64,000 nucleotides of DNA from Candidatus Nomurabacteria bacterium (GTDB lineage: Bacteria; Patescibacteriota; Saccharimonadia; JAGOAT01): NCBI GenBank assembly GCA_020639315.1, contig JACKGM010000001.1, positions 18,511 to 82,510 on the forward strand, written 5' to 3'. The position numbers and the translations under genes were made by a program. A model generated the notes under the pieces. It was not told the origin of the DNA. It saw nothing but the letters and a program-made list of their open reading frames with translations, and did no database searches. Below are positions 591-62,315 of this stretch, piece after piece (within the stretch, counting starts at the first letter, position 1; the number at the start of each line of letters is the position of its first letter).

Positions 591-650
591 CGGGGTCTGA
601 CCCCGAACTCGACATTGCTAACAGATATAAATCGTCGGGGTCTGACCCCG
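591..650 (+). repeat. Twin-palindrome module, type C (CGGGGTCTGACCCCG x2, 45-bp period, core AACAGATATAAA)
   Basis: Palindromes at 591-605 and 636-650. It lies in the divergent region upstream of the GalT-like gene. Confidence 0.9.
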
Positions 651-14718: not shown

Positions 14719-14756
14719 ATTGTTAGTTTTCTTGAGTATCTGAAGGCGTAAAAGTG

Positions 14757-14866: not shown

Positions 14867-14926
14867 CGGGGTCAGACCCCGTCAATTTATATCTGTTAAG
14901 GATGCCAACTTCGGGGTCAGACCCCG
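14867..14926 (-). repeat. Twin-palindrome module, type C
   Basis: CGGGGTCAGACCCCG at 14867-14881 and 14912-14926 (45-bp period). The core TTTATATCTGTT lies between them. Confidence 0.9.
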
Positions 14927-29048: not shown

Positions 29049-29070
29049 CTACTTTATAAACATCTATCCC

Positions 29071-29331: not shown

Positions 29332-29338
29332 AATTTTG

Positions 29339-29620
29339 CTATTTCATTAAGCTATCCAGGTGGGCTAATGCCCCTTTTGCCCCCTTAGTATGTGTAATAT
29401 CACGGTCAGCTACATAATCGGCTTTAGCGTCCCTCATGATCTGTTCTAGGTAGGGAGTAGGCTCTAGGTTAGTACTCAAAACGACACGCCTATCTCGTAA
29501 AGTCTGTTTTACGACCATATTTACAAGAGCGGTACTAGACACACCTAACTCGGTAGCAAAAGTCTTTAGCTCCTGTTTGGTTTTCTCGTCAATCTTAATA
29601 CTTAACTGTACGCTACCCAT
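29339..29620 (-). CDS. RelB/DinJ-like ribbon-helix-helix antitoxin
   Basis: 93 aa. The N-terminal VQLSIKIDEKTKQELKTFATELGVSSTALVNMVVKQTL is an RHH-type segment like DinJ. Confidence 0.65.
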   Translation of the reverse strand: MGSVQLSIKIDEKTKQELKTFATELGVSSTALVNMVVKQTLRDRRVVLSTNLEPTPYLEQIMRDAKADYVADRDITHTKGAKGALAHLDSLMK

Positions 29621-29749
29621 AGTATAGTCATTGTATATCTATCGTATATGTATGTCAATACGATCGATATTGCTTTACAGCCCATAGTATATTCAATGGG
29701 GCCTGAAAGTATCTATCCTGATAACGACTTTAGTGAACGGTATTGTACC

Positions 29750-29896
29750 GTCATCCTCCAAAACCCGTCCCTCTCTTGTCATCCTCCAAAACCCGCTCCT
29801 TGTCTTTGTCATCCTCCGAAGCTCGGAGAGCTTACGGGGGATCCAGTATTCCTGCATTGCCTTGAGATTCAATTCAAATACTGGATCTCCGGTATT
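29750..29896 (+). repeat. 147-bp direct repeat, copy 2, right of the RelE/DinJ cassette
   Basis: See copy 1. The offset is 961 bp. Confidence 0.9.
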
Positions 29897-30103
29897 ACCC
29901 TTCGGGTAATCCGAAGATGACACGGGAAGGGATTGTCATCCTCCGAAACCCGGAGGGTTTACGGGGGATCCAGTATTCCTGCATTGCCTTGAGATTCAAT
30001 TCAAATACTGGATCTCCGGTATTACCCTTCGGGTAATCCGAAGATGACACGGGAAGGGATTGTCATCCTCCGAAGTTCGGAGAACTTACGGGGGACCTTG
30101 TAT
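29750..30103. repeat. Family-A hairpin repeat cluster with an internal ~100-bp tandem duplication
   Basis: The block ...CCAGTATTCCTGCATTGCCTTGAGATTCAATTCAAATACTGGATCTCCGGTATTACCCTTCGGGTAATCCGAAGATGACACGGGAAGGGATTGTCATCCTCCGAA... occurs twice in tandem. Confidence 0.92.
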
Positions 30104-30129
30104 CTCGTACTCCTACCAGGAGGCCACCC

Positions 30130-32167: not shown

Positions 32168-32204
32168 AGATTGTCCAAATTCCTCGATCCATCCTCTATG
32201 TCTT

Positions 32205-32372
32205 GTCATCCTCCGAAGTTCGGAGAACTTACGGGGGATCCAGCATTTCTGTATTACTGGGCAACTAATTCAAATACTGGATCTCCGGTATTACCCTCCG
32301 GGTAATCCGAAGATGACGAGGAGAGGGTTGTCATCCTCCGAAGTTCGGAGAACTTACGGGGGATCCAGTATT
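32205..32372. repeat. Family-A hairpin repeat cluster between convergent genes
   Basis: GTCATCCTCCGAAGTTCGGAGAACTTACGGGGGATCCAG occurs twice, flanking an inverted GGTATTACCCTCCGGGTAATCCGAAGATGAC unit. Confidence 0.92.
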
Positions 32373-32409
32373 CCTGTATTTAATCGGTATTCACTTCAAA
32401 TACCAAGCA

Positions 32410-34211: not shown

Positions 34212-34270
34212 CAAGGGCACCCCTTGAGCATTTATATCTGTAAAAAAATTATTTTCAAGGGCACCCCTTG
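34212..34270 (-). repeat. Twin-palindrome module, type D (CAAGGGCACCCCTTG x2)
   Basis: Palindromes at 34212-34226 and 34256-34270 (44-bp period), with core TTTATATCTGT. It lies between divergent proS and infC. Confidence 0.9.
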
Positions 34271-35128: not shown

Positions 35129-36072
35129 CTAACTCACCTCCTGCCCTAGTGCTGCTCGTATTACAAACCTTGTGACCCCTGTATTACCTAGATCTAATGG
35201 GGCTACATAGCCCCTGGGTACCCTATAATCTTCCCTCGTATCGACAATCTGCCGCCTTACCCTATCTGGCACTTTCTCAACCTCTGATTTCCTATTACGA
35301 TAGTTCACTACTCTAGAGAGACCAACTGCCCCTAAGAAGGCACCTAGCCCGGCAAATCTATTAACCCTGTTGCCATATAACCTCACGGCTTCAAAACTGC
35401 CATTTTTGCCCCAGACTAGCAAAACACTTCGCAGCGTAACTCCTGTTATGCTTTGTCGTGTTTTGGTATTCTGGAATAAAAATCATCAGCTTTGACCTCG
35501 CAAGTTTATATGGCAACAGGGTTATTGCTCGAAATATCATTAACCCCCAGCCCAGCCATTCCACTAGTAGGAATATCTACAAACCAGTCCCTCAGCCTTT
35601 GGCGATTTTGATATTTTCTTATAGTCTCTGGATATTTTTTGGATTCAGCATAAAACTTCAATCCGTTGATTAGGGCTTGCATCAAGCGCTGATTGTATCT
35701 TATAGTGAACTCTTCCCACTCTAATTTCTCCTCAGAATCTAGGTCGGGCAATAGCTTTAAGTAGATTTGACCTAAAGAGACCAATAACCTTGCATTATCA
35801 CCATCTTGCTCTGGTTGAATAAACTGCCAACTATCACCTTCATCGTCTACTGACAGGCCAGTAAAGACAATCTCTAGTTCTGATAAATCTGGCTTATCCT
35901 CAATATTGGGCAGCCCAAAAGCATCATAATACCCTCTCAAGTATTGAAGGAGATCCTTTTGCCATTCTTCCTCAACTAAACCCTCACCAAATAGCATATG
36001 AAGTGCTGGACTATCCTCAATGGTAATCTTAGGTAGTTTTCTCTCGTAACTATTGTTTGTTTCAGGGGTCAT
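35129..36072 (-). pseudogene. Orphan gene split by a 161-bp MITE (track ORFs 35506..36072 and 35129..35422)
   Basis: The MITE core 35363-35523 sits between the two ORFs. It supplies the stop of the upstream part and the first 20 codons of the downstream part. Removing 161, 164 or 167 bp joins them in frame (...GVNDISS-N-RFAGLGAFLG...), giving about 259 aa. Confidence 0.7.
35363..35523 (+). mobile_element. MITE family F inserted in a coding region
   Basis: Same TIRs, flanked by ATT (35360-35362 and 35524-35526). It separates two same-strand ORFs that become one on excision. Confidence 0.92.
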
Positions 36073-37632: not shown

Positions 37633-37977
37633 ATGAGAGTCAAGAGAGGTACCACTGCTCGCAAGCGACACAAGAAGATGATTAAAGCCGTTAAAGGCTA
37701 TAGCCATATCCGTAGATCAAGCTATCGCAAAGCCAAAGAAGCCTGGATCAAGGCTCAAACCTACGCCTACCGTGACCGTAGAAACCGCAAGCGAGATTTT
37801 CGTGGTCTCTGGATCACTAGGATTAATGCGGCTGCCAGACAAAATGGTCTTAGCTATTCACAACTAATCAACCTGCTTGCTAAAAGTAATATCAAGCTAG
37901 ATCGTAAGATCCTTTCCGAAGTAGCATTCAACCACCCAGAAAGCTTCAAGGCGATTGTTGATACTGTCAAAAAATAG
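37633..37977 (+). CDS. rplT: 50S ribosomal protein L20
   Basis: 114 aa: MRVKRGTTARKRHKKMIKAVKGY...YAYRDRRNRKRDFRGLWITRINAAAR. Confidence 0.95.
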   Translation: MRVKRGTTARKRHKKMIKAVKGYSHIRRSSYRKAKEAWIKAQTYAYRDRRNRKRDFRGLWITRINAAARQNGLSYSQLINLLAKSNIKLDRKILSEVAFNHPESFKAIVDTVKK

Positions 37978-37989
37978 TCTTATCATCGC

Positions 37990-38384
37990 GTCACCAAACC
38001 AAAACCCCGCAGGGATTTATGGGAGACCCACCTCCTCTGTCATCTTCGGATTACTCTTTAGAGTAATACCGGAGATCCAGTATTTGAGTTAGCCACAGGC
38101 AATATGGAATGCTGGATCCCCCGTAAGTTCTCCAAACTTCGGAGGATGACAATACAATACACAATGCCGAATACTGGATCCCCCGTAAACCCTCTGGGTT
38201 TCGGAGGATGACAAGACAATGCCATTAACTTAAGAAAAAGCCAGTATCTTTTGACATCCTATTAAAGCTTGATTTGTACATTGAATAAAACTTGCAAAAG
38301 CTTAAGTTAATGGCATTGAGATGACAGGAGAAGGACGGGTTTCGGAGGATGACAATCCTCTCCTCCGTCATCTCCGGTATTTGA
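37990..38384. repeat. Family-A hairpin repeat cluster downstream of rplT
   Basis: Includes GTCACCAAACCAAAACCCCGCAGGGATTTATGGGAGACCC, GTCATCTTCGGATTACTCTTTAGAGTAATACCGGAGATCCAGTATTTGAG and several inverted units. Confidence 0.9.
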
Positions 38385-38388
38385 ATTA

Positions 38389-39054
38389 CTAACCAAAAAT
38401 CAACTGGATAAAGTCCTGACTAGCTTGTTCTAGCTGGCCTTCTCTATTGATAACAAAATCAAACCAACCCTGACCCTGATTCTTCCTCGCCCATTCAAGC
38501 TCAGTCTTTGTAGTGCCCAGCCTAGTAGCTAGCTTACCCCTATCTATCTCATCTCCACTCTCCTGCCAACGCCTGAGAATTCTACGCTCAAGTATCTGAA
38601 GATTACTGTCCAGATCATTTAATGGTGCAGGAGCAATGAATATTACTTTCAAATCAAGCTCCCTTCTAATAATCTCGATGCCTTGATATTCTATCTCGAG
38701 TAGTACCTTCCTGCCCGCCTCAAGCGGTCTTAGGATTGATAAAATCGGTGTACCATAGTAATTGCCATGTGCCATGGCATATTCCAGGAATTCACCCTGA
38801 TCAATCTTTTGCTCAAACTCAGCTTTGCTCAAGTGGCAATACGCTTTGTATGGTCTGATGTCACCAATCTCGGCCACTTGATCTCGTTGCTCTCTAGCTC
38901 TAGAAGTAGCACTGACTGGAATCACCAATTTTTGATCACCCTCTAGCCTGGAATTGACCATCTGTTCCAGCGCATTCTTCCCAGCTCCCGACGGGCTGAC
39001 GATCGCATACAGATTACCTTGACTCAACTCTCTTAGGTGATCTATGTCTGACAT
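38389..39054 (-). CDS. gmk: Guanylate kinase
   Basis: P-loop IVSPSGAGKNAL and FLEYAMAHGNYYGT. Start placed at MSDIDHL (rc ATG 39052-39054), because the track extension runs into a MITE terminus. Confidence 0.8.
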   Translation of the reverse strand: MSDIDHLRELSQGNLYAIVSPSGAGKNALEQMVNSRLEGDQKLVIPVSATSRAREQRDQVAEIGDIRPYKAYCHLSKAEFEQKIDQGEFLEYAMAHGNYYGTPILSILRPLEAGRKVLLEIEYQGIEIIRRELDLKVIFIAPAPLNDLDSNLQILERRILRRWQESGDEIDRGKLATRLGTTKTELEWARKNQGQGWFDFVINREGQLEQASQDFIQLIFG

Positions 39055-39060
39055 AGAGAG

Positions 39061-39066
39061 ATTATA
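39061..39066 (-). promoter_or_regulatory. -10 box TATAAT formed at a MITE-B terminus, 6 nt before the gmk ATG
   Basis: Minus strand reads ...GTATGCTATAAT-CTCTCT-ATG. TATA (39063-39066) is the MITE end and AT (39061-39062) is flank. Confidence 0.5.
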
Positions 39067-39226
39067 GCATACCCAAAACAAAACCGGACAATTTGGGATT
39101 ACTAATAAAGAGCTAGAAAGTTAGTTCTTTATATGAACCTTACTTATAAGTAAGGTGAATAGAAAAACTAGATTTGTAGACTTTAGTAGTGGGTCAAAAG
39201 GCTGGTTTTGTTTTGAGTATGCTATA
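39063..39226 (-). mobile_element. MITE family B, subfamily 2, full copy
   Basis: TATAGCATACCCAAAACAAAACCGGACAATTTGGG...GGGTCAAAAGGCTGGTTTTGTTTTGAGTATGCTATA. Its left terminus abuts the gmk start. Confidence 0.9.
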
Positions 39227-39258
39227 TATCATAGGATTTGTGACTATACTGAGCATTT

Positions 39259-39363
39259 CCAGGGGATCTCTGATCCAATTTGCTAAGGAAATTTGAAAGA
39301 TGACAGAAGGAGGGTGCATTGTCATCCTCCGAAACCCAGAGGGTTTACGGGGGATCCAGTATT
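39259..39363. repeat. Family-A head-to-tail pair
   Basis: An inverted unit ...GATCCAATTTGCTAAGGAAATTTGAAAGATGAC, then GTCATCCTCCGAAACCCAGAGGGTTTACGGGGGATCCAGTATT. Confidence 0.88.
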
Positions 39364-39374
39364 TAAAACTAATC

Positions 39375-40829
39375 CTAATTCAGCCCAAACTTAAAACCAA
39401 GCAGTTGGTCAGTATCAAGATCGGTAGTATACACTACCGACCGATCAGGCTGGCTGAAGTAGGCTGGATCATCAGCATTGGTGACCAGCCCCTCCAAGGA
39501 AAACTTATCTGGGGGAAAAATCTGAATAGTATATTGGCTAGACTTCTGTCCGACCGACCTTTGCAGTAAAAATTCAAAATCAAAGTCCTTGGTCAGATCC
39601 AGCTTGGTAGGCAAAATATACCTAAACTTCGCTTTGCTAGTACTAAGGACTTTGGTATCGAGCTTAAACTGGTAGATATCTCGCTCTGCTTCTCGATGTG
39701 AAGTAATCTCATCTGGTGAGATACTACTTGCTACCAGCTTACTACCTCGCGGAATTGCGATCTCAGAATAGTTGATATTGTCACTAATCAGCCAGGTATC
39801 AAATCCGTGGACGGGATCTGTATAAAGACCGGCTCTATCAGAAGTATGCTCCCTTTCAATCAACAAGTCTACCGTCACTTGACCAGTCTGATCGATCCTA
39901 ATCTGCTGCTTAATCTCTTGACCAAGATAATACGCTGACTTATTGGCCGCATAAGTCAGTTCACTGACTGCAAGATAATTATCAAAACCAGGCTCAAGCT
40001 CTCCTGTCATGTTGAGATTCTGAAAGGCTTGATTGATCTTAGGGTTGGTTGAATATCCTACTAATTGTTTACTAGCAATCTGACTTGTCACGATATTCTG
40101 AGCTAATTGAGAGATTGTACTAATATTTAGATCAAGTATTCTTGTAATGATTGCATTTGACAATACTCCTAATATCGTCTTCGGATCATCCCCCTCAGCC
40201 TTATCCTGACCAGACTCGACTTCTAGCTGGACTACAGTCCGAAAATTATCGGCGCTAACTTCTAAGCCATATTGATCTAGGTATATTGGACCAGTAACCC
40301 TTAAGATATCTATTAGAACGTCTGGTGTAATTTGCAAAACAGTATCAAACTCTTGTCCGGTATTTACCTCCATTGCCTCCAGAGCAAGCTTTGCGCTATC
40401 AGGCCAATTCATATATAGTCCTGAGTTTCGCAAAAAACCCTTGCCAGTAAAATTGCCCGGGCCAATCTCACTAGAGATATCAATCACCGGATAAACAGCC
40501 TCGTTATTGATCCAGTCGTAGTAATATACACTACGTATATCCTCCACCTGCATCTGGCCTTCTCCGTTTTCAATAATACCTACTGTCCCAATAAATCCTC
40601 CCCCAAATCTCTGCTCAGCATTATTGGCGAATAAGATAAGTACCCTTTTACTATTGGTCTTGATATTTGAAAGCAAGCTAGCAAATTGCTGGGTATCGGA
40701 CTGACCAAAAAATAGTGGCAAGTGATAGATCGCACTGCCAGTCAGTACTAGCCCAACATAGGCGATAAACACTATCCCAGATATAAAAAAAGACCTAAAG
40801 CTTATTAACCCTTTTGATACTCTAAACAT
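39375..40829 (-). CDS. DUF4012-like membrane-anchored envelope protein
   Basis: 484 aa with an N-terminal TM helix and the segment LILFANNAEQRFGGGFIGTVGIIENGEG, which I associate with DUF4012. It sits downstream of glycosyltransferase genes. Confidence 0.55.
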   Translation of the reverse strand: MFRVSKGLISFRSFFISGIVFIAYVGLVLTGSAIYHLPLFFGQSDTQQFASLLSNIKTNSKRVLILFANNAEQRFGGGFIGTVGIIENGEGQMQVEDIRSVYYYDWINNEAVYPVIDISSEIGPGNFTGKGFLRNSGLYMNWPDSAKLALEAMEVNTGQEFDTVLQITPDVLIDILRVTGPIYLDQYGLEVSADNFRTVVQLEVESGQDKAEGDDPKTILGVLSNAIITRILDLNISTISQLAQNIVTSQIASKQLVGYSTNPKINQAFQNLNMTGELEPGFDNYLAVSELTYAANKSAYYLGQEIKQQIRIDQTGQVTVDLLIEREHTSDRAGLYTDPVHGFDTWLISDNINYSEIAIPRGSKLVASSISPDEITSHREAERDIYQFKLDTKVLSTSKAKFRYILPTKLDLTKDFDFEFLLQRSVGQKSSQYTIQIFPPDKFSLEGLVTNADDPAYFSQPDRSVVYTTDLDTDQLLGFKFGLN

Positions 40830-41947
40830 TTGTCCTCGGTGTATTGCCTAACCTCAGCAATAAATCTTTGCTCAGAAAAAGACTGAGCATGCTTAATAAT
40901 CTTCTCTACATTAAAATTGATCTTGGGAAATTCAAGAATAGCGCTGACGACTGACTCAACTGACTGAGTATCAAAGAATATCCCAGTCTTGGCGGGGACA
41001 ATCGTTTCGGTCGCACCACCTTGGCGGTAAGCAATCACTGGCAATCCTAGTGCCATTGCTTCCAATGGCACTATCCCAAAGTCCTCTTCGCCAGGAAAGA
41101 TCAAAGCCTTGGCCTTACTAGCCAAATAACTAACCTCTGAATCAGAAGCCTCCCTTAAAAATCTGATCTGCGTACTACCCTGAGCAAGCTCTACTAGTCT
41201 CGAGTATTCGGGACCATTACCGACCACTAGTAAGTTCTGGTTGGTGATCAGGCAAGCCCGCAATGCTAAATCAATTCTTTTATAAGGTACTAAGCGGGAA
41301 AAGCAGATAAAATAATTCTTGAAGTTGCTTAAGCTAGAGACAGGACTCTTAGCTTTTAATCGCTCTAGATCTACAGGTGGATAAATCACCTTGCTATCAC
41401 GGTGATAATACTGCTTGATCCTAGATCTGGTATTGCGTGAATTGGCGATCAAATAATCTGGTCTTTGACCCGCCTGGTAATCCCAACTCTGGCTAGATTT
41501 GAGGAGCAACTGATTGGCTTTTCCTGCAATTAACCCCAACCCTCCGATACCTGGACTTTGACTATACTGCTGACTATGACTCCAGTAATAACGGGTAGGA
41601 GTATGAATATATGAGATATGAACAGTCTCTGTCGGCACTATTATACCTTTGGCTTCTGCACTACTGTCGGATAATACCAAATCGTAATCCTTAAAATCAA
41701 AGCTCTCAAAAGCAAACCTCCTGAGGATCGGGTACAGTTGGTGCCTAGATTTTGCTAACGGCCAGCTATTGATAAAACTCGTGATCACATTTTTGTCAGC
41801 TAGCTCTGGAAATAGCTTAGGGTTATAGGCACTAGTATAGATATCGGCATCTGGATAAGCCTTAGACAGACTGACTAAAACCCTTTCAGCCCCACCCCGG
41901 CTAGTCAACCAATCATGGACCAAGGCTACCCTGATCTTAGACCCCAT
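40805..41947 (-). CDS. Glycosyltransferase family 4
   Basis: KIRVALVHDWLTSRGGAERV N-terminus and a C-terminal EEDFGIVPLEAMALGLPVIAYRQGGATETI (GT4 E-x7-E region). Confidence 0.85.
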   Translation of the reverse strand: MGSKIRVALVHDWLTSRGGAERVLVSLSKAYPDADIYTSAYNPKLFPELADKNVITSFINSWPLAKSRHQLYPILRRFAFESFDFKDYDLVLSDSSAEAKGIIVPTETVHISYIHTPTRYYWSHSQQYSQSPGIGGLGLIAGKANQLLLKSSQSWDYQAGQRPDYLIANSRNTRSRIKQYYHRDSKVIYPPVDLERLKAKSPVSSLSNFKNYFICFSRLVPYKRIDLALRACLITNQNLLVVGNGPEYSRLVELAQGSTQIRFLREASDSEVSYLASKAKALIFPGEEDFGIVPLEAMALGLPVIAYRQGGATETIVPAKTGIFFDTQSVESVVSAILEFPKINFNVEKIIKHAQSFSEQRFIAEVRQYTEDKCLEYQKG

Positions 41948-43379
41948 CTCCACCCCGTATCATGATTAGAACTGTCCTAATAATAATCTTAATATCCAGC
42001 CAAGGTGACCAGTGTTCGGCATAATATATTTCTAACCTCAGTCGATCCTGATAATCTAGCTGATTTCTGCCTGAGACTTGCCAAAGACCAGTCAGGCCTG
42101 GCTTGATCATCAATACCTTGTCTTTGCTCTGTTTGTGAGCATTGAGTTCGTCTGGCAAATGAGGCCTGGGACCAACCACACTAAGTTGCCCTAGTACTAC
42201 ATTGACAAACTGGGGCCACTCATCGACCCCCAGTCTTCTAAACAATGCAGTTGCTGGGTTGATCCTAGGGTCAGGATTGAGCTTATGATCTCTTTTGTAG
42301 ACCGGTATCAGATCTGCCCTACCCATTCTGGTCAATGTCTGGACTGGATCCGAATTTGGGTAACCCTTACCATCAGAATACCTATATAGCATTGTACGAA
42401 ATTTATAGACTCCAATCTCCTTACCCCCCCTACCAAGCCTCTTGGTCTGATAGATTACTCCACCCTTGGGATCAGATAGCTTGATAACAATTGCCATCAG
42501 TATCATGACCGGAAATCCCAACACCAAAGCACCCAAGCCAAAGACTGTATCAAACACCCTTTTGCCAATCAATTGAAATCCGGTCAACGGAGTGGGGTCG
42601 ATCTGGCTGATGATTTGACCGCCAAAATATTGATTGGTAATTCTACCTTGATAAAGGTTTTGAGTAGTTGGTAGGTATTGATAAATCTTACTAGCCTGGT
42701 GAACGATCTCTACTAGCTCCCACTGTATACTCTTACTGATCGATCCCCCTATCTCAATGATCAAATCTATCTGATCATCCCTGACACCCTGAAGCACTTG
42801 ATCGACTATCTCTTCTCGATCAAGCTGATCGACAATCAGTAGCTTGACCTCTACAATCTGCTGATCCTGCTGAATAGATTGCCTGAGACTCTCAAGATGC
42901 TTGGGCTGCTTGCTACTAGCAATAATCATTGCTCTTCTTAACCCATAACGTTTGAGATAGAGTAGTTGACGCAATTGGCCGACAAAGTATCTCCCGATAA
43001 AAAGTAGCAATACTGCAAATACCCAGGCTAGTACTGGCACTAACTTTGAAGGAAATAGAGGCTCAACTGTGAAATAATCTATCAGGATAGTTAGAACAAT
43101 ACTAGATAGACTAGCTAGTAACAAGCGGCCAAACTGATGTCTGCGACCTCGGGCTGGAGTAGTATATAGTCCAGTAGCAAAGAAGATAATTATCCAGAGC
43201 GGAATCACTGGCAAGATCAGCTTCAAATACTCTTGACCACTGATCGCGAAGGCAAATGGCTTGTCTGAGTAATCTCCTCTGACTAGATAGGCCAAAACAA
43301 ACCCCCCAAGCATTGCTAGGAAATCTACCCCGACTTGAAGCAGGTTGACTAGTTGCTCGCTTCTTTTTTGCATAGTCAT
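41937..43379 (-). CDS. Polyprenyl glycosylphosphotransferase (WbaP/EpsL-type priming sugar transferase)
   Basis: TM-rich N-terminal half and a C-terminal bacterial sugar transferase domain (VFDTVFGL...IYQTKRLGRGGKEIGVYKFRTM...GPRPHLP...KPGLTGLWQVSGRN). Start placed at MTMQKRSEQ (43379, or 43373). The track N-terminal 77 aa are translated repeats. Confidence 0.85.
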   Translation of the reverse strand: MTMQKRSEQLVNLLQVGVDFLAMLGGFVLAYLVRGDYSDKPFAFAISGQEYLKLILPVIPLWIIIFFATGLYTTPARGRRHQFGRLLLASLSSIVLTILIDYFTVEPLFPSKLVPVLAWVFAVLLLFIGRYFVGQLRQLLYLKRYGLRRAMIIASSKQPKHLESLRQSIQQDQQIVEVKLLIVDQLDREEIVDQVLQGVRDDQIDLIIEIGGSISKSIQWELVEIVHQASKIYQYLPTTQNLYQGRITNQYFGGQIISQIDPTPLTGFQLIGKRVFDTVFGLGALVLGFPVMILMAIVIKLSDPKGGVIYQTKRLGRGGKEIGVYKFRTMLYRYSDGKGYPNSDPVQTLTRMGRADLIPVYKRDHKLNPDPRINPATALFRRLGVDEWPQFVNVVLGQLSVVGPRPHLPDELNAHKQSKDKVLMIKPGLTGLWQVSGRNQLDYQDRLRLEIYYAEHWSPWLDIKIIIRTVLIMIRGGDGV

Positions 43380-43400
43380 ATTATAGCATTCCCCCGATGT

Positions 43401-43460
43401 CGCGAACTGTTCGCGGTTTTTGCCACTTTGCCAGATTAGAAATGTCGCGAACTGTTCGCG
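43401..43460 (-). repeat. Twin-palindrome module, type E (CGCGAACTGTTCGCG x2)
   Basis: Palindromes at 43401-43415 and 43446-43460 (45-bp period). The spacer is GTTTTTGCCACTTTGCCAGATTAGAAATGT. It lies 13 nt from the -10 of the sugar transferase gene. Confidence 0.9.
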
Positions 43461-43543: not shown

Positions 43544-43603
43544 CGGGGTCAGACCCCGTTATTTTATATCTGTTGGGAAGGTCAGTTTCGGGGTCAGACC
43601 CCG
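43544..43603 (-). repeat. Twin-palindrome module, type C
   Basis: CGGGGTCAGACCCCG at 43544-43558 and 43589-43603 (45-bp period), with core TTTATATCTGTT. It lies upstream of the sugar transferase operon. Confidence 0.9.
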
Positions 43604-43665: not shown

Positions 43666-44934
43666 CTACCAAGACAAGGTAGCGAAATAATCCTCACGAG
43701 TCTGGGGCCGACGAATCATTTTAATTTCTCCATCTGGCTCCAAAAGATACTCCCCAGCACGCAATTTACCATTGTAATTAAATCCCATTGCGTGAGAGTG
43801 AGCACCAGCATCCCTAATCACTACTATATCTCCAGCTTCCATCTCTGGCAAAGGTCGATATTTGGCATCCTTGCCAGTAAAGAAATCATTATTTTCACAG
43901 AGACTTCCGACCACTGCTTGATCAACTATTCGGCGACCTTCGGGATTCAAAACTTCAATCCCGTGATAAGCATCATACATGCCTGGACGCATCAAATCAG
44001 CCATCGTGGCATCCACCCCGACAAACCTTCTACCTTCATACCCCAGCTTGACACTTCGAACCTGGGTCACTAGATAACCGTGAGGCCCAGTAATATGCCG
44101 ACCGTTTTCTGTCATAATTCTGAGAGGTGGTAAGCCTTTATCTAGAATCATTTCTCTATATACAGATTCTAGTCCGCTAGAAAGCGCTTTGTAATCAATC
44201 GGTTTCTGATCTGGATGATATGCCACGCCCAACCCTCCTCCTAGATTGACAAACTTTATCCCAATCCCTGCTTGTGCCAGCTCAGCTACCTTGGAAAAAA
44301 GGATTCTAGCAGTATCTATATGTTGAGCAACATCAAGCTCATTGGAAACCAACATAGTATGGATACCAAAATGTTTAGCTCCGTATTTAGAAGCCAGCTG
44401 ATAAGCTTCGATTAAATCATGCTCTGGCAAACCAAATTTGGAGTCTTCAGGCCTACCAATAATACTATTATGACCAGCCTTTCTACTTGAGCCTGGATTG
44501 TAACGAAAAGATATTGTCTCAGGAAACTCACTTCCTAATGCGGATCTAAGTACCTCAATCTGATTAATATCATCGAGATTGATAATGGCCCCTTGCCTAT
44601 AGGCCTCCCGGTATTCTTCAGGATCTACATTATTGGCAGTAAACATTACTGCCTCACCTGTCATATCTGCCATCCTAGCTAGCTCTAGCTCTGGACCGGA
44701 GCTAGCATCTGCTCCCATCCCTTCCTCTCTTAATATATCTAAAATATGAGGGTTGGGATTAGCTTTGACTGCAAAATAGTTCTGGTAATCGAACCCTGTA
44801 TTTGACAGCGCCATAGACAAGCTACCGGCAGTCTGCTTGATACCTACTTGATCATACAAATAATATGGTGTCGGGAAATCATTAGCCTTGATTGCCCTTA
44901 GGATCCTGGGTGGTAATTGAATCTGACTACTCAT
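43666..44934 (-). CDS. lysA: Diaminopimelate decarboxylase-like PLP enzyme (Orn/DAP/Arg decarboxylase family)
   Basis: 422 aa with YFAVKANPNPHILDILREEGMGADASSGPELELA, NLGGGLGV and GSLCENNDFF. Confidence 0.75.
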   Translation of the reverse strand: MSSQIQLPPRILRAIKANDFPTPYYLYDQVGIKQTAGSLSMALSNTGFDYQNYFAVKANPNPHILDILREEGMGADASSGPELELARMADMTGEAVMFTANNVDPEEYREAYRQGAIINLDDINQIEVLRSALGSEFPETISFRYNPGSSRKAGHNSIIGRPEDSKFGLPEHDLIEAYQLASKYGAKHFGIHTMLVSNELDVAQHIDTARILFSKVAELAQAGIGIKFVNLGGGLGVAYHPDQKPIDYKALSSGLESVYREMILDKGLPPLRIMTENGRHITGPHGYLVTQVRSVKLGYEGRRFVGVDATMADLMRPGMYDAYHGIEVLNPEGRRIVDQAVVGSLCENNDFFTGKDAKYRPLPEMEAGDIVVIRDAGAHSHAMGFNYNGKLRAGEYLLEPDGEIKMIRRPQTREDYFATLSW

Positions 44935-45029
44935 ATCGTATGTTATAATTTTACCATGAGTATTACTCCTCTAAACCAGCAATCCTCTGCGAGTCTAGTG
45001 GGAGCAAAAGCGGACAATCTTTGGCTACT

Positions 45030-45193
45030 TATAGCAAGTTAAAAACAAAACCAGACTTTTGACCCAACTCTAGAGTCTATAAAGCTAGTTTTCTTCTTCA
45101 CCATATCTATGGATATGGCTCTTAAGAAGAACTAACTTTCTAGTTCTCTATAGTACAGCTCAAATTATCCGGTTTTGTTTTGAGCTTGCTATA
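45030..45193 (+). mobile_element. MITE family B, full copy
   Basis: Near-identical to 13157-13320 over its full length. Confidence 0.9.
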
Positions 45194-45279
45194 CTACCCT
45201 AGGGTACAAGACACCCAAATTTTGTTTTAAAGAGTCTATACAAATAACCTTGAGCCAGCTGAAGTAATCAGACTATTAC

Positions 45280-45711: not shown

Positions 45712-45736
45712 GATTAATCTATCTTACCACAATAAA

Positions 45737-45898
45737 CTCGACTTACACAAAATCCTTAAGTCTCCAGGATCGCCTCCGAAGTCCAGAACTACTTTTTTAC
45801 GCTGTCACCGATGCATCAGCATCGCTTCCATCAGACAAAATAACTTCTGAGTCTTTGGAAGGCAATCATGGGGTATCCGAGGTTTTGCGTAAGTCGAG
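45737..45898. mobile_element. Foldback element family G (162 bp), single copy in window
   Basis: TIR is CTCGACTTACACAAAATCC / GGTTTTGCGTAAGTCGAG (16 of 18 match). The arms stay partly complementary inward (TCCAGGATCGCCTCCGAAGTCCAGAA versus TTCTGAGTCTTTGGAAGGCAATCATGGGG). Confidence 0.7.
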
Positions 45899-49252: not shown

Positions 49253-49311
49253 CAAGGGCACCCCTTGCAGTTTTCTATCTGTAAGAGATGCTTTTTCAAG
49301 GGCACCCCTTG
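49253..49311 (-). repeat. Twin-palindrome module, type D
   Basis: Palindromes at 49253-49267 and 49297-49311 (44-bp period), with core TTTCTATCTGT. Confidence 0.9.
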
Positions 49312-50424: not shown

Positions 50425-50750
50425 GTAGTTTCCCCTGGAACCTTGGGAGATGACAATAACCTCTGCTGTCATTTTCCAAAATCCCGCCCCTATTCTCGTT
50501 ATCTTCCAAATTTCCTTTAGGAAATTATGGGAGCTCCACCCTCCTCCTGTCATCTTCGGATTACCCCTTGGGGTAATACCGGAGATCCAGTATTTGAATT
50601 AGACCCATAATAATGCAAAATACTGGATCCCCCGCAAGTTCTCCGAACTTCGGAGGATAACAATGCTCCCTCTGTCATCTTCCAAATTTCCGTAGGAAGT
50701 TATGGGGCACTTTCCTATTACTATTTAAGAGATCCAGTATTTGAATTTGG
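50425..50750. repeat. Family-A hairpin repeat cluster in a divergent intergenic region
   Basis: Includes GTCATCTTCGGATTACCCCTTGGGGTAATACCGGAGATCCAGTATTTGAATT, rc GTTATCCTCCGAAGTTCGGAGAACTTGCGGGGGATCCAGTATT, and GTCATCTTCCAAATTTCCGTAGGAAGTTATGGGG. Confidence 0.9.
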
Positions 50751-52136: not shown

Positions 52137-52150
52137 TGGGGCTATATTAG

Positions 52151-52367
52151 ACTGGATCCCCCGTAAGTTCCCCGAACCTCGGAGGATGACAGAAGTCGAG
52201 TCACCAGCCCAAATTTCCACCCTACTTTCGTGTCATCTTCCAAATTTCCATAGGAAATTATGGGATCCAATATTTGAGTTGAATCCCGAGGAATGCAAAA
52301 TACTGGATCCCCAGTAAACCCTCTGGGTTTCGGAGGATGACAAGAGAGGGGCGGGTTTCGGAGAGTA
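52151..52367. repeat. Family-A hairpin repeat cluster between convergent genes
   Basis: Includes GTCATCTTCCAAATTTCCATAGGAAATTATGGGATCCAATATTTGAG and two inverted GGATCC...GGAGGATGAC units. Confidence 0.9.
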
Positions 52368-52382
52368 ATTAAAAAATCAGAT

Positions 52383-52787
52383 CTAAGCAACTAGATCGTA
52401 GCTATCTGGATTATTAGAATCCTCAACCCTAGCTCTCCCCACCCCCAGAAGCCTGGCTACGAGCTCAGCGCGTACCTTAAAACGACCCCATTGTTCCTGA
52501 GTAAGCCCTTCTGGTATACCCACAGAATCTCCAAACATAGTTCTTAATACCTCAATGGTAAAGGGCCTACCATCCCCACCCTGAGAAGGTATTTCGACAG
52601 GTTGGCTACTTCCAGCTTTTCTTTCAGAGTTGTTGAATAATCTTCCTACGGTGGCTACAGAAAATCTATTACCCTTGAGTTTTTTTAATGGTTCCCCACT
52701 GTAAGGCAAGCCCCCTGGATTATAAGGGTCACGATTATATGATTCATTAGGTAGTTCTGGGCTGTGGTAATTATTCATTCCATCCAT
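52383..52787 (-). CDS. Hypothetical protein
   Basis: 134-aa ORF. No motif recognised. Confidence 0.5.
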   Translation of the reverse strand: MDGMNNYHSPELPNESYNRDPYNPGGLPYSGEPLKKLKGNRFSVATVGRLFNNSERKAGSSQPVEIPSQGGDGRPFTIEVLRTMFGDSVGIPEGLTQEQWGRFKVRAELVARLLGVGRARVEDSNNPDSYDLVA

Positions 52788-54156: not shown

Positions 54157-55995
54157 CTATTCCACCGTGACTGATTTGGCCAAATTGCGTGGCTGATCGA
54201 CATCCCTACCCAAATCTACAGCTACATAGTAAGCGATTAGCTGAGAAACAACATTAAAAATTAGTCCCTGAGTCCAGTCACTGACTCGTTTGACCCTAAT
54301 CACATCGATTGTGCCCCGTGCTAAATCTTGCTCCTCACTATCGGTAACGACTAGGATATTACTAGTCCTGGCCTTGACTTCGGCTAGATTGGACTTCGCC
54401 TTGTCGTACAAAAAATTATTAGACAAAAAGAACACTACCAGCAAATCATCACCCAGTAAGGCATTTGCCCCGTGCTTCATCTCTCCGGCGGGATAAGCTT
54501 CCGCCTGAATATAGCTTACCTCTTTGAGCTTATGCGAACCTTCAATCGCGATTGGGTAGAGACTATCACGACCGAGATACATCATATGTCCAAACTTAGC
54601 AATCTTACTAGCAAGAAGTTTGATCTCTTGATCCAGACTTAGTACTCCCTCAATATCATTAGCCAGACTACCCAAGGCCTGAATCACCTCCATCGAACGC
54701 TCGATCGAGAGCTGACGATATCTACCTATCTCCAGACCTAGTAAAAGTGTAGCAATCGACATCGAGCTAAAGGCTTTGGTCGAAGCTACCGATATCTCAG
54801 GTCCCGCATGGAGATAAATCCCCCCGTCAACTTCTCTAGCAATTGTTGACCCAGCAGTATTAATAATACCCAGTGTCAACATACCCCTACGCTTCATTTC
54901 ACGCAGTGAAGCTAAGCTATCAGCAGTCTCCCCAGACTGGGAATAGACTACTCCAAGCGTATTTTTACTAGTAGCTGGGTCACGATAGCGAAACTCTGAG
55001 GCCATTTCGACATCTACTGGTATATTGAGCATTTTCTCAAGCAAATATTTACCGAGCAAACCTGCATAGTAGGCAGTCCCACAGGCTACTATCAAAATCC
55101 TATCTATTTTCCTAAAATAATCATCTGGAAGATTCAACCCCCCAAGGTGCGAGCTGAAGTTTTGTTTGTCTATTCTACCCCTCAAGACATTGATTACAGC
55201 TTCGGGTTGCTCCATGATCTCTTTGATCAAAAAGTGATCATAGCCAGATTTCTGGATCTGACCAGGATCAAGCTCGATAGTCTCTGGAGTGACATCACGA
55301 AGATTGTGATCAAAATCATATACCTGATAGCTACCAGCCCCTAATACTGCATACTCTTTGTCCTCGAGATAAATTATTCGATCGGTATAGCTAATAATCG
55401 CCATTGGATCACTTGCGATATAAGTGGCATGATCTGACAAGCCTATTAGCAGTGGACTGGCTTGTCTAGCTACAATCAGCTGATCGGGTTGATCTTCGGC
55501 AATAATTGCTAGCCCATAAGCCCCCTTGAGTCTAGTAAGTGCTTGCCTGACCGCCCCTACGAAATCAAGATCGGATTGCTGGTAATAATAATTGATCAAT
55601 TGTGCCACTACTTCACTATCGGTCTCAGAGCTAAACTCACAGCCGAGCTCAATCAATTCTTGTTTGAGCTCTTGATAGTTTTCAATAATCCCATTGTGAA
55701 CTATTGAGATCTTACCTACCGTATGCGGGTGAGCATTGATTTCACTAGGATCACCATGAGTAGCCCAACGAGTATGCCCAATCCCAAGCTTGGTCGATTC
55801 CAAACTCTGACCGAGCTTATCCTCTAGGCTAGCGATCTTACCCTTTGAACGAACAGTCTTGATCTGATTACCCGCCATAAATGCTATCCCGGCTGAGTCA
55901 TACCCTCGATACTCCATCCGCTTGAGTCCTAAGACTAGTGCCTCGATATTGTTTGGGCTAGACTTACTAGCTATTAGTCCAATAATTCCACACAT
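54157..55995 (-). CDS. glmS: Glutamine--fructose-6-phosphate aminotransferase
   Basis: MCGIIGLIA N-terminal nucleophile, two SIS domains and a C-terminal ...RNLAKSVTVE. GGGGA lies 5 nt upstream of the ATG. Confidence 0.93.
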   Translation of the reverse strand: MCGIIGLIASKSSPNNIEALVLGLKRMEYRGYDSAGIAFMAGNQIKTVRSKGKIASLEDKLGQSLESTKLGIGHTRWATHGDPSEINAHPHTVGKISIVHNGIIENYQELKQELIELGCEFSSETDSEVVAQLINYYYQQSDLDFVGAVRQALTRLKGAYGLAIIAEDQPDQLIVARQASPLLIGLSDHATYIASDPMAIISYTDRIIYLEDKEYAVLGAGSYQVYDFDHNLRDVTPETIELDPGQIQKSGYDHFLIKEIMEQPEAVINVLRGRIDKQNFSSHLGGLNLPDDYFRKIDRILIVACGTAYYAGLLGKYLLEKMLNIPVDVEMASEFRYRDPATSKNTLGVVYSQSGETADSLASLREMKRRGMLTLGIINTAGSTIAREVDGGIYLHAGPEISVASTKAFSSMSIATLLLGLEIGRYRQLSIERSMEVIQALGSLANDIEGVLSLDQEIKLLASKIAKFGHMMYLGRDSLYPIAIEGSHKLKEVSYIQAEAYPAGEMKHGANALLGDDLLVVFFLSNNFLYDKAKSNLAEVKARTSNILVVTDSEEQDLARGTIDVIRVKRVSDWTQGLIFNVVSQLIAYYVAVDLGRDVDQPRNLAKSVTVE

Positions 55996-56101
55996 ACTTT
56001 CCCCTAGTGTTAATGTCTTATGAGTTTTTATTATATCGCACACTGCTAATATATCCCAATAAACCTGGCCCAGCAACAAACTTGCCCTCTAGCCAAACTG
56101 T

Positions 56102-56161
56102 GGCGAACTGTTCGCGGTTTTTGCCACTTTACCAGATTGGAGATGTCGCGAACTGTTCGCG
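56102..56161 (-). repeat. Twin-palindrome module, type E
   Basis: GGCGAACTGTTCGCG at 56102-56116 and CGCGAACTGTTCGCG at 56147-56161 (45-bp period). The spacer is GTTTTTGCCACTTTACCAGATTGGAGATGT. It lies upstream of glmS. Confidence 0.9.
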
Positions 56162-56171: not shown

Positions 56172-57299
56172 TCAAATCACCAAGTCCTTAGGGGACTTGG
56201 CTAAATTGATTGAACCCTGCTCAGTCACTACTAAGGTATCCTCGATCCTTACTCCCCCGACTACCCCCAGAGTATTGGCCTTGGGATCGGTATAGTATAG
56301 TCCCGGCTCAATCGTAATCACTTGATTTTGCCACAGCACTTCACCCGGAGTAGGGTTTGGCTGCTCGTGGATATCTAGACCAACTCCATGACCTAAGCCA
56401 TGGAAATAACCTTGCTGATGACCGTCTTGACCCAACTTCGTTTCAAAGCCCTGCTTGACAAACTTTTTCCTAATCGCTTGGTCGATCTCATAGTAGCTTG
56501 CCCGTTGCTTGACCTTTTTTATTGCCTTGGTCTGGGCTTGGTAGACAGCATCATAAAGGGCCAGCTGGCCATCTGTAGCCTGCCCCCTGATCACTGTCCT
56601 ACTCATATCAGTATAGTATAAGCTCTCAATCGACCTCGGGAAGATATCAAACACGATAAATTGATTGGCTAAGATTGGCCCACTACCTTGACAGTGAGGG
56701 TCAGCGGTATCTAAACCTGATGATAGTATCATACCCTCTGGGTTATCATAGCCGAGCCTAGCTAGCTCGACTCGCAAAAGCTGTTTGACCATTTCACTGG
56801 TAACAATCTGATCCCCTCGATAAAGGTATTGGCCACGAATCTTAGCCTGACTAAGGAAATCGATCGCTTGGGCGTATACCAGATCGACCGCTACTTGTGC
56901 CTGACGAATATAGGCAATGTCTTGATCTGACTTAACCTCCCTCTGATCGAGGAAGCTATCATAAATTTTATCCAAAATAAGATCAGGAAACTCTTGTCTC
57001 AAATGCATATAGTATTGCAGATCGATTGACCCGTCTAGCCAGAGCTTGCCAATCTTATACTCCTTGAGGTACCCGATAATAGAACCAATCAGCCCAGATT
57101 GAGCTCCCTTATAAAAATCTACCACTAAATCTGCCTTGGAAGTAGCTTTCGCTATATCATACTCTAGAGGACTGATAAAAAGAACTTTTTTATCATCGTG
57201 AATCAACAACCCAAATGGGTCAGGTGAATCGAACCCTGATAAATAATAGAGGTTTGAATCCTGCCTAGATCGACCGATATAGAGATTTGCACTCTTCAT
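56172..57299 (-). CDS. Xaa-Pro aminopeptidase / M24 family peptidase
   Basis: 375 aa with M24 metal ligands in FDIFP...DMSRT...HGLGHGVGLDIHE...TIEPG...GGVRIEDT. Confidence 0.85.
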   Translation of the reverse strand: MKSANLYIGRSRQDSNLYYLSGFDSPDPFGLLIHDDKKVLFISPLEYDIAKATSKADLVVDFYKGAQSGLIGSIIGYLKEYKIGKLWLDGSIDLQYYMHLRQEFPDLILDKIYDSFLDQREVKSDQDIAYIRQAQVAVDLVYAQAIDFLSQAKIRGQYLYRGDQIVTSEMVKQLLRVELARLGYDNPEGMILSSGLDTADPHCQGSGPILANQFIVFDIFPRSIESLYYTDMSRTVIRGQATDGQLALYDAVYQAQTKAIKKVKQRASYYEIDQAIRKKFVKQGFETKLGQDGHQQGYFHGLGHGVGLDIHEQPNPTPGEVLWQNQVITIEPGLYYTDPKANTLGVVGGVRIEDTLVVTEQGSINLAKSPKDLVI

Positions 57300-57396: not shown

Positions 57397-57774
57397 TTAG
57401 TTGAAGTTGATGGTTTTGTTAGTTTTGTTAGTTGAGCGCTTGAGATTTTTTGAAAGTAGCTGAACAGCTTGGTTCATCTCTTCCCAATTACTCTCAATAA
57501 AAGCGAGATATTGTCTGCCCTGTCTGGTCATCTCGTAATACTTACGGGGTGGACCAGCGCTTGACTCCTGCCACTTATGGGCAACAGCCTTGATCTTAAG
57601 AAGTCGTTTCAGGAGTGGATATAGCGTCCCTTCCGAAACTGTAATTCCTACAGACTCTAGCTTGTCAATGATCTCGTTTGCGTAGCTTTCCTTGGCTCCG
57701 ATCACTTGGAGGACACAGAGCTCAAGAGTACCTTTACGCATCTGTGCAAGATTACTTTGTATACTATCTTGCAT
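57397..57774 (-). CDS. PadR family transcriptional regulator
   Basis: MRKGTLELCVLQVIGAKESYANEIIDKL...SEGTLYPLLKRL...PPRKYYEMTRQG. Start likely MQDSIQS (57774), given TTGACG-18-TATGAT upstream. Confidence 0.85.
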   Translation of the reverse strand: MQDSIQSNLAQMRKGTLELCVLQVIGAKESYANEIIDKLESVGITVSEGTLYPLLKRLLKIKAVAHKWQESSAGPPRKYYEMTRQGRQYLAFIESNWEEMNQAVQLLSKNLKRSTNKTNKTINFN

Positions 57775-57945
57775 CACAAGTACAATCATATACCGAGCTA
57801 CCTTGTATCGTCAAGTACTTAGCATAAGTTTTATAGCAAAACTTGTGGATAACTTCTACCGTGTCGCAGAATAACTGTTCGGTATAGCCCCCTTCCCTTG
57901 TTCGGTACCGAACACTCTCCCTCCAAAAAATCACAAGCACTTCTG

Positions 57946-58005
57946 CAAGGGGTGCCCTTGAAAATCACTATGTCAACAGATATAAAATTGCAAGGGGTGC
58001 CCTTG
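57946..58005 (+). repeat. Twin-palindrome module, type D
   Basis: CAAGGGGTGCCCTTG at 57946-57960 and 57991-58005 (45-bp period), with core AACAGATATAAA. It lies between divergent padR and rsmI. Confidence 0.9.
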
Positions 58006-62140: not shown

Positions 62141-62218
62141 TTATCATTTAGTAGCAACTGCCTGGATAAATATAGGGCTTTTGGGGGTTCCCAAAAAGTG
62201 CAAAATACTTAAATGCGA

Positions 62219-62291
62219 GATATTAGATCCCCCGTAATCCCCTATGAGGATTTGGAGGATGACAAAAGAGAGGCGGGTTCCGAAGGACGAC
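62219..62291 (-). repeat. Family-A unit plus half unit
   Basis: The rc reads GTCATCCTCCAAATCCTCATAGGGGATTACGGGGGATCTAATATCTCGC. Confidence 0.85.
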
Positions 62292-62315
62292 AATGTGAAG
62301 GCGGTAGATACATCA

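Follow-up and report, generated by a model that had tools for sequence, protein, structure and literature searches.

A duplicated double-dyad module upstream of a priming-transferase operon and of glmS in a Saccharimonadia genome

The two loci and their promoters

The window, by which we mean the whole 64-kb stretch of DNA analysed, encodes a priming-transferase operon and glmS, each preceded by one copy of a paired palindromic element referred to here as type E. The copy at the transferase operon is named E_A and that at glmS E_B. Both have the same orientation, and every gene that flanks them is on the minus strand. Pfam searches bore out the gene identities given in an earlier note on this DNA (Bac_transf, GT4, DUF4012 and glmS). 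The features of the two loci are as follows.

39375..43373, minus strand: operon downstream of E_A, with Bac_transf (41937-43373), GT4 (40805-41953) and DUF4012 (39375-40829), by Pfam
43371..43388, minus strand: transferase promoter and start, with an extended -10 box TGCTATAAT (43388-43380), six bases and the ATG (43373-43371)
43398..43460, plus strand: E_A, made up of TGT, palindrome (43401-43415), spacer (43416-43445) and palindrome (43446-43460)
43666..44934, minus strand: Orn/DAP/Arg decarboxylase-like gene upstream of E_A; a NYN-domain gene is at the equivalent place in the sister species
54157..55995, minus strand: glmS (612 aa), by Pfam
56030..56059, minus strand: glmS core promoter, with -35 TTGGGA (56059-56054), 18-nt spacing and -10 TATAAT (56035-56030)
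56099..56161, plus strand: E_B, made up of TGT, palindrome (56102-56116, GGCG variant), spacer (56117-56146) and palindrome (56147-56161)
56172..57299, minus strand: M24 (Xaa-Pro) peptidase gene directly upstream of E_B, by Pfam
57397..57789, minus strand: PadR-family regulator gene, the only transcription factor gene near E_B

The transferase mRNA is predicted to be leaderless, and the same arrangement of an extended -10 box close to the start codon (TGnTAnAAT-N4-9-start) was identified at about 14 genes in the window. Our comparator is a single sister species, ‘Candidatus Saccharibacteria bacterium’ (GCA_017983775.1 and Logan assemblies), with 87-89% protein identity, and the comparison covers three E instances in all. 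This species keeps TATAATAT[G/A]ACTATG (TATAATATAACTATG) and a protein of 478 aa, indicating that the true transferase start is at 43373; the first ATG reads ATA there. The NCBI annotation extends the protein through E_A to 527 aa. We rejected such a coding N-terminal extension given the in-frame stop and the 478-aa protein in the sister species, and the NCBI call is probably wrong.

With this start codon, E_A spans positions -28 to -87 and lies 27 nt from the ATG, its proximal dyad covering -28 to -42. The distance from the proximal palindrome to the -10 box, previously put at 13 nt, is 15 nt to TATAAT (43385-43380) and 12 nt to the TG of the extended -10 box. E_B begins 10 nt past the stop codon of the M24 peptidase gene, at about -79 to -138; 42 nt separate it from the glmS -35 box downstream, and 106 nt from the start codon (ATG at 55995). 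The sites are therefore positioned inconsistently with respect to the core promoters, at -28 to -87 for E_A, -79 to -138 for E_B and -48 to -107 for the E module of the sister species. A sigma-70 promoter within the E spacer was also considered and rejected, as the promoter scan gave no match there and the -10-like TTAGAA is degenerate at E_B. The absence of a glmS ribozyme, as claimed in the earlier note, is in agreement with our Rfam searches, in which neither this nor any other family matched the window at gathering thresholds and only chance-level matches appeared at E values up to 10.

The type E element

The claim that the same element precedes both glmS and the transferase operon in one orientation was confirmed, as a block of TGT, CGCGAACTGTTCGCG, a 30-nt spacer and again CGCGAACTGTTCGCG occurs twice in the window, at 43398-43460 and 56099-56161. 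We give the length of the block as 63 nt because the TGT ahead of the first palindrome is part of it. The palindrome CGCGAACTGTTCGCG (reverse complement CGCGAACAGTTCGCG) is found at 43401-43415, 43446-43460 and 56147-56161, and a copy with a single mismatch, GGCGAACTGTTCGCG (the GGCG variant), at 56102-56116. Type E palindromes are perfect 7-1-7 dyads, with eight strand-matches in the window against 0.17 expected, a count reached in none of 100 shuffles. The direct repeat at E_A reaches 27 nt (ATGTCGCGAACTGTTCGCGGTTTTTGC twice, with a 45-nt period) and runs on to 43468 (GTTTTTGC).

Palindrome and spacer had both been described as conserved between the two sites, and this too is upheld. E_A and E_B are identical at 59 of 63 positions, spacer included, and have sharp edges and unrelated flanks. 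The spacers differ at three of 30 bases and match nothing else in the window. These features show, as we read the alignment, that E_A and E_B are duplicates of one module, that is, homologous copies and not independently evolved or convergent operators. Since the spacer is as conserved as the palindromes, the glmS copy is a recent duplicate of the entire module and not a pair of operators selected on their own. An assembly artefact is ruled out by L040, a separately assembled metagenome contig of this strain, which begins within E_B with identical sequence.

A family of double-dyad modules

Scanning for perfect 7-N-7 palindromes and for direct repeats at fixed spacing revealed that type E is accompanied by two further types, G (dyad CGGGGTCTGACCCCG) and P (dyad CAAGGGGTGCCCTTG). 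The family comprises eight modules in 64 kb, all of them intergenic, each with a 15-nt dyad, a 29-30-nt spacer and the same dyad again, equivalent to about 1.3 copies of a 44-45-nt tandem unit. No other palindromic direct-repeat pairs at 40-50-nt spacing were detected in the window, and no other period was enriched. The G and P modules are as follows.

591..650, plus strand: G1, 24 nt upstream of the leaderless promoter of a GalT/HIT-like gene (start 684)
14867..14926, minus strand: G2, 37 nt from the leaderless promoter of the gene at 14979
43544..43603, minus strand: G3, CGGGGTCTGACCCCG twice with a 45-nt period, in the intergenic region that also contains E_A and 83 nt upstream of it
34212..34270, minus strand: P1, CAAGGGGTGCCCTTG twice with a 44-nt period, between the ProRS and IF3 genes
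49253..49311, minus strand: P2, 44-nt period, downstream of a LssY_C gene
57946..58005, plus strand: P3, 4 nt upstream of TGGTAAAAT, the leaderless promoter of a gene for an RsmI-like methylase that is transcribed divergently from the PadR gene

Five of the eight modules sit 4-54 nt upstream of five of the 14 leaderless extended -10 promoters in the window. The genes served by these promoters are unrelated: a GalT-like gene, a small ORF followed by a Vut_1 gene, ProRS, the RsmI-like gene and the transferase. All six G palindromes are identical to one another, as are all six P palindromes, whereas identity between their spacers has fallen to about 50% in the 5' half. This difference argues for a sequence-specific constraint on the dyads.

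The E modules can be aligned with the rest of the family. A motif common to the G and P spacers, ACAGATATAAA, precedes the second dyad by four bases and is found almost only in modules. The E spacer, read on the plus strand, fits the G/P spacer profile in register (CAGAT..AAAT; p = 0.002-0.007 against shuffles), and a central T is also common to E and G/P. When oriented by spacer, both E modules face away from the gene that they precede (the transferase gene or glmS); of the four G and P modules next to a promoter, three (G1, P1 and P3) face that promoter.

Conservation in the sister species

The sister species has an orthologous module at its transferase operon (L026, 580-639), composed of TCGCGGACAGTCCGCGA, CAATTCTAATCTGGCGAAGTAGCAAAAG and TCGCGGACAGTCCGCGA. 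It is 85.5% identical to E_A over 62 nt, compared with 74.6% for the coding DNA of the operon and 60-64% for third codon positions; at a neutral identity of 0.63, the probability of the 51 matches seen among 60 module positions is 1.6e-4. Conservation extends to the spacer (25 of 30 bases). The order of the Bac_transf, GT4 and DUF4012 genes is the same in both species. The gene upstream differs (NYN in the sister species, a decarboxylase here), indicating that the E module travels with the transferase operon.

The substitutions in the sister module preserve its symmetry. Both of its palindromes carry the symmetric change from GAACAGTTC to GGACAGTCC (A5 to G and T11 to C), which amounts to two double-sided pair changes whether the dyads fold together into one long hairpin or separately into two. 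P3 is also retained in the sister genome, again flanked by the RsmI-like gene and the PadR gene. Each of its dyads carries the same two substitutions (giving CAAGGGGACTCCTTG twice), and one of these breaks the perfect symmetry. The variant dyads of that genome are CAAGGGGACTCCTTG for P and CGCGGACAGTCCGCG for E. As the P3 changes again occur in both dyads, concerted dyad evolution characterises the family and not type E alone. Slippage is suggested by micro-duplications (ATGTCGCG) that border the sister E module.

The situation at glmS is different. No E-like palindrome occurs anywhere in 9 kb at the glmS locus of the sister species, which nevertheless keeps the -10 box and the 5' leader; homology begins at 56038. 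The upstream region there carries other dispersed repeats that are also found elsewhere in the window. Retention of E_A and absence of E_B in the sister species indicate that the copy at the transferase operon is the ancestral, constrained one and that the copy at glmS is lineage-specific. On these comparisons E_A is shown to be ancestral and, by its degree of conservation, under purifying selection, and E_B to be a recent whole-module duplicate confined to this lineage. The same comparisons show, in our reading, that E_A and likewise P3 are functionally constrained beside a promoter.

The best protein matches of the window are 100% identical and labelled ‘Candidatus Nomurabacteria bacterium’ at NCBI. 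Beyond these and the sister species, all further homologues belong to Saccharimonadia, at no more than 57% identity, which places the window in a CPR/Saccharibacteria-like genome. We did not detect double-dyad modules in about 60 kb around the orthologous genes of distant Saccharibacteria. A search for the pair pattern in 185,579 species genomes, the source genome not being among them, yielded nothing but REPIN-like pairs with GTAG flanks, all in unrelated MAGs. JGI metagenomes, searched with a 20-mer, contained four matches, all chance matches in coding sequence, and the modules had no match in viral-contig, phage and plasmid collections.

Is there a shared regulon?

From the two E sites, the earlier note had suggested a shared regulator of amino-sugar supply and envelope glycan synthesis. 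One part of this suggestion stands, in that E_A is a real dyad that is adjacent to a promoter and conserved in the sister species. The other part is not supported, given that the link to glmS is not conserved, the two placements are unlike, E_B is a duplicate, and no cognate regulator for the E dyads was identified in the window.

In its full form, this suggestion would have a dedicated regulator binding the E dyads at both loci, with glmS and envelope glycan synthesis as a true regulon. It is consistent with the presence of paired, perfect 7-1-7 dyads, the only E copies in 64 kb, upstream of two functionally linked loci, with the overlap of the conserved E_A with the upstream promoter region, and with the location of a PadR regulator gene 1.2 kb upstream of E_B. 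Functional themes are also hinted at for the other types, P lying beside ProRS/IF3 and RsmI, and G beside the GalT-like gene and the transferase operon. However, the sister species conserves the glmS promoter and lacks the E copy, the identity of the spacers reflects duplication and not convergent selection, and E_B is distant from the promoter. The G and P palindromes, moreover, lie beside genes that are unrelated (GalT-like, ProRS/IF3 and RsmI/PadR). Given about seven envelope or sugar genes in a total of about 60, the chance that two random intergenic insertions would both fall next to genes of this kind is about 1-5%, a figure that is a post hoc estimate and not a computed value. We consider a true regulon of this kind unlikely; shared control of glmS and the glycan operon is possible.

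The candidates for a regulator are few. The window encodes two transcription factors, the PadR protein (57397-57789) and an ArsR/MarR-like protein (4606-4929), and no others. Locally, the PadR gene is upstream of the peptidase gene, followed by E_B and then glmS. The PadR gene has its own upstream palindrome, TGTTCGGTACCGAACA, which is 16 bp long, is 100% conserved in the sister species and has the form TGT-N10-ACA, as expected for PadR operators (PMC3506622). A second sequence upstream of the PadR gene, CGAACAGTT, partly resembles the E core and is not conserved in the sister species, where PadR is encoded at the syntenic site and glmS has no E module. We therefore set PadR aside as an unsupported candidate for the E-binding protein, because its own palindrome is a different one, CGAACAGTT is not conserved and E_B is absent beside the sister PadR gene.

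The case for E_A does not depend on glmS. A cis-acting role of E_A at the glycan operon is likely, because it is a real dyad that adjoins the core promoter, is under purifying selection and has accepted substitutions that preserve its symmetry.

Hairpin structure and the dispersed-repeat alternative

Either strand of a module folds into a long hairpin in which the two dyads pair with each other (two 7-bp stems around a central mismatch) and close a 30-nt loop, with dG of -23 to -41 kcal/mol and z-scores of -1.6 to -7.6. Both dyads of every module have the same central base or bases and the same flanks, making them direct repeats with a 44-45-nt period. Covariation counts fit the long-hairpin and two-hairpin models equally, and likewise RNA and DNA models.

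Such folding brings in the main rival to our interpretation, a selfish or structural repeat of the REP/BIME/REPIN or MITE kind, in which case proximity to promoters would reflect preference for or tolerance of insertion, with no specific regulatory role. The genome is packed with dispersed repeats and MITE-like elements, at which the assemblies of this strain break, and its intergenic regions are swollen by repeats relative to those of the sister species (293 nt here and 36 nt there in one case, 411 and 12 nt in another). E_B is newly copied, with ends that coincide exactly with those of the module. The stability of the hairpins, the compensatory nature of the changes and the combination of conserved arms and variable spacers in the G and P modules also agree with such a repeat, arms of this type being a feature of REPINs (PMC3116915). 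The bases before the E dyads are TGTCG in four cases, TGTGG in one and AGTCG in one, so that five of six match TGT(C/G)G and recall the REP head (T)GT(A/G)G (PMC2817692); the G and P dyads have no such head. In addition, pairs of GCGAACnGTTCGC flanked by GTAG...CTAC are REPIN-like repeats in unrelated MAGs.

Several observations are difficult to reconcile with a repeat of this kind. E_A and P3 are retained at orthologous sites, and E_A exceeds the neighbouring coding DNA in conservation. The dyads are direct and not inverted, which leaves the central mismatch in the long hairpin. Neutral decay would not produce G and P dyads that are 100% identical within diverged spacers. The window contains no RAYT or transposase gene among the about 65 ORFs scanned, and target-site duplication is not evident; E_A and E_B share only TGT in their flanks, and a MITE was rejected for that reason. 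We regard a purely selfish or structural repeat as somewhat unlikely.

The detailed comparison with REP, BIME and REPIN sequences (PMC2817692, PMC3333891, PMC3116915) is mixed. Like these, the modules are paired short extragenic palindromes with a fixed short spacer, of several types per genome, with arms that are more conserved than the spacer (types G and P) and compensatory changes, folding into long hairpins and giving rise to new copies at new intergenic sites. Unlike the imperfect and inverted REPs, they are perfect 15-mers in direct orientation and have no clear GT(A/G)G head, no RAYT in the window and an apparently modest copy number (8 per 64 kb over all types). They favour the upstream side of promoters and not 3' ends, and the host is CPR/Saccharibacteria-like.

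A further alternative is that the module acts as RNA, as a stem-loop in read-through transcripts that terminates, processes or insulates between co-directional genes. All three E instances are indeed between co-directional genes, and E_B is 10 nt past a stop codon. The sense-strand hairpin of the sister species is followed by UUUUU, palindrome 1 followed by GTTTTTGC scores as terminator-like on the plus strand, and the P3 variant of the sister species gives a G.T wobble on one strand. However, the gene-sense strand has no U-tract after E_A and only UUU, 4 nt after E_B, and a scan for intrinsic terminators returned no sense-strand match at either site, the matches being on the antisense plus strand. 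Canonical terminators are in use at other places in this organism, one of them after the PadR gene. G1, G2, P1 and P3 are in divergent or 5' contexts where no terminator is needed, and the lack of an Rfam match also weighs against this alternative, which we judge improbable.

Comparison with other known elements

The modules also resemble the paired operators of dimeric repressors, as in two-operator promoters or PadR-type operators of the form ATGT-N8-10-ACAT (PMC3506622). The likeness consists of perfect dyads, two sites per promoter region, overlap with the upstream promoter region (E_A and P3) and conservation of orthologous sites. In contrast to such operators, the spacer here is conserved, the whole unit has been duplicated between loci, the distance to the -10 box is variable and the 45-bp spacing is a non-integral number of helical turns. 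Type E, written as ATGT-N15-ACAT, does not fit the PadR spacing.

We rejected three further classes. A CRISPR mini-array would have repeats of about 23 nt or more and unique spacers, whereas the core here is 15 nt (27 at E_A) and the ‘spacer’ is conserved across loci and species. An integron attC site does not fit. The Cheo consensus of LexA has CGAAC/GTTCG half-sites spaced N4; in type E the same half-sites are spaced N1.

Correia elements of Neisseria and so-called mobile promoters are small intergenic repeats beside the promoters of unrelated genes, and are able to rewire expression. The modules are likewise small and promoter-adjacent. They differ in being only about 60 nt long, in having neither terminal inverted repeats nor target-site duplication, and in their -10-like sequence, GATATAAA, which has no genome-typical TGn extension and is not kept in P3 of the sister species.

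A proposed role for the modules

Given the analyses above, our preferred and still tentative explanation, to which we give slightly less than even weight, is that type E has diverged within a family of short intergenic modules, specific to this lineage, that duplicate and lie close to promoters, and that a putative protein-bound E_A modulates the transferase promoter. The dyads would be recognised, sequence-specifically, by a dimeric protein, and both dyads of a pair might be kept identical by tandem-copy slippage, gene conversion or hairpin-templated correction. We suggest that E_A may modulate initiation at the transferase promoter, because its proximal dyad (-28 to -42) sits where a -35 element normally would.

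At its distance, E_B would not be able to occlude the glmS promoter. The most that it could do is act from an upstream position, or stop read-through from the peptidase gene in the manner of a roadblock or insulator, and it may or may not confer E_A-like control on glmS. As E_B is both distal and recent, co-regulation of glmS and the glycan operon, if any, would be a recent species-specific rewiring by copy-and-paste of a module and not a conserved regulon.

Some properties of the modules do not correspond to a simple operator. The distance from dyad to -10 box is 15 nt at E_A but 35 nt at its counterpart in the sister species, and ranges over 3-53 nt in the family, a variation that is unusual for simple occlusion. 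The 45-bp spacing corresponds to about 4.3 helical turns, which puts the paired dyads on different faces of the DNA. Binding at the dyads would not by itself account for the conservation of the E spacer between species. Identical dispersed dyads are atypical of ordinary regulons, and a nuclease, a transposase or a structure-based mechanism would also fit.

Almost nothing is known of transcriptional control in CPR/Patescibacteria, whose genomes are tiny and encode few regulators, and the modules offer a concrete handle on cis-regulation and on the spread of regulatory DNA in this group. We speculate that this CPR lineage could wire small regulons by copying a 60-nt double-dyad cassette, with one regulator per type (E, G and P), type E having recently recruited glmS. 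We consider this doubtful; if true, it would be a portable operator system with concerted dyad evolution, not described for such reduced genomes. If the modules are merely selfish hairpins, they would still represent an unusual repeat burst in a streamlined lineage, one that explains the fragmentation of assemblies. Contigs from other metagenomes that are 100% identical to the window are short and end at repeats.

Palindrome-pair modules and dispersed repeats

The geometry of 15+29/30+15 nt (dyad, spacer, same dyad) is common to the type E modules, found at the transferase operon and at glmS, and to six more palindrome-pair modules in the window, three each of types G and P:

591-650, type G module
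14867-14926, type G module
43544-43603, type G module
34212-34270, type P module
49253-49311, type P module
57946-58005, type P module

Dyads within each of these two types are identical, while the spacers have diverged in the 5' half; all six spacers have the motif ACAGATATAAA in common. REPIN-like pairs, ATGTAGGGGCGAACTGTTCGCCC...GGGCGAACAGTTCGCCCCTACAT, were found on AT-rich contigs of unrelated MAGs (L003, L008, L010, L014-L016 and L018 from MAGs nzgw73 and nzgw190; L007 and L009 from a Clostridia MAG). Their 13-nt core is identical to that of the E dyad, but, unlike the E module, these pairs are inverted and carry GTAG heads.

The window holds repeats of other kinds as well:

13153-13321 and 45026-45194, MITE-like 169-nt elements, 98-99% identical
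14554-14722 and 35359-35527, MITE-like 169-nt elements, 98-99% identical
11300-11510, 28790-30115, 32195-32380, 38070-38360, 50580-50670, 52150-52390 and 62210-62300, very abundant hairpin repeat family
18290-18657 and 20559-20926, exact 368-bp direct duplication, copies 2269 bp apart

The MITE-like elements are bounded by terminal inverted repeats, TATAGCAAG...CTTGCTATA; their GGTTTTGTTTTTAACTTGCTATA ends occur in ~10 copies, and many partial copies of the element ends are strewn through the intergenic regions. Members of the hairpin family have the form …GGATCCCCCGTAAG-stem-CGGAGGATGACA… and often lie in tandem arrays with periods of 28, 62 and 127 nt; it is at these repeats that assemblies of this strain break. 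The 368-bp duplication brackets an ORF of 412 aa (19109-20347) that has no Pfam match.

Comparison of 38389-39375 and 37977-38389 with the transferase-operon contig of the sister species (L026, 4687-5404) revealed that repeats have greatly enlarged the intergenic regions of the window: the DUF4012-to-Gmk gap is 293 nt versus 36 nt in the sister species, and the Gmk-to-L20 gap 411 nt versus 12 nt. The region upstream of glmS in the sister species (L019, 3913-4122) contains different dispersed repeats, with copies at 45732-45893 and at 14558-14601 / 35363-35411 of the window. Repeats thus accumulate upstream of the glmS promoter in both lineages.

Promoters and the transferase start

The arrangement of TGnTAnAAT followed after 4-9 nt by a start codon was identified at ~14 genes in the window (674, 7413, 14963, 34158, 39069, 43388, 46763, 58009, 61127 and others), suggesting that mRNAs without a leader, made from extended -10 promoters, are common in this organism. 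In the NCBI protein MCB9834461.1 (41937-43520, 527 aa) the start of the priming transferase is annotated 49 codons too early, and the E module is translated as the repeated peptide KNREQFAT. The transferase of the sister species is 478 aa long, and an in-frame stop closes off its module.

The orthologous transferase gene of distant Saccharibacteria is preceded by a gap (L028, 2543-3324) with an apparent RNase P RNA gene, recognised by eye in the sequence. The gap also contains, ~70 nt before the transferase start codon, a perfect inverted repeat of 19 bp, GTACAAACTTTCAAAAGAT...ATCTTTTGAAAGTTTGTAC; the operon is the same as that preceded by the E module, but the hairpin is different.

Palindromes upstream of regulator genes

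Palindromes lie upstream of two regulator genes:

57870-57925, minus strand, region upstream of the PadR gene (57397-57789), with the perfect 16-bp palindrome TGTTCGGTACCGAACA (TGT-N10-ACA)
4963-4977, minus strand, single 7-1-7 palindrome ACAACCAGTGGTTGT, immediately upstream of an ArsR/MarR-like regulator gene (4606-4929)

TGTTCGGTACCGAACA, 100% conserved in the sister species, is probably the operator of PadR itself; a direct repeat of TACCGAACA starts 21 nt after it. Beyond the sister species, the nearest homologues of PadR are Bacteroidota proteins (~50% identity), a hint of horizontal acquisition. ACAACCAGTGGTTGT is probably the ArsR/MarR-like regulator's own operator.
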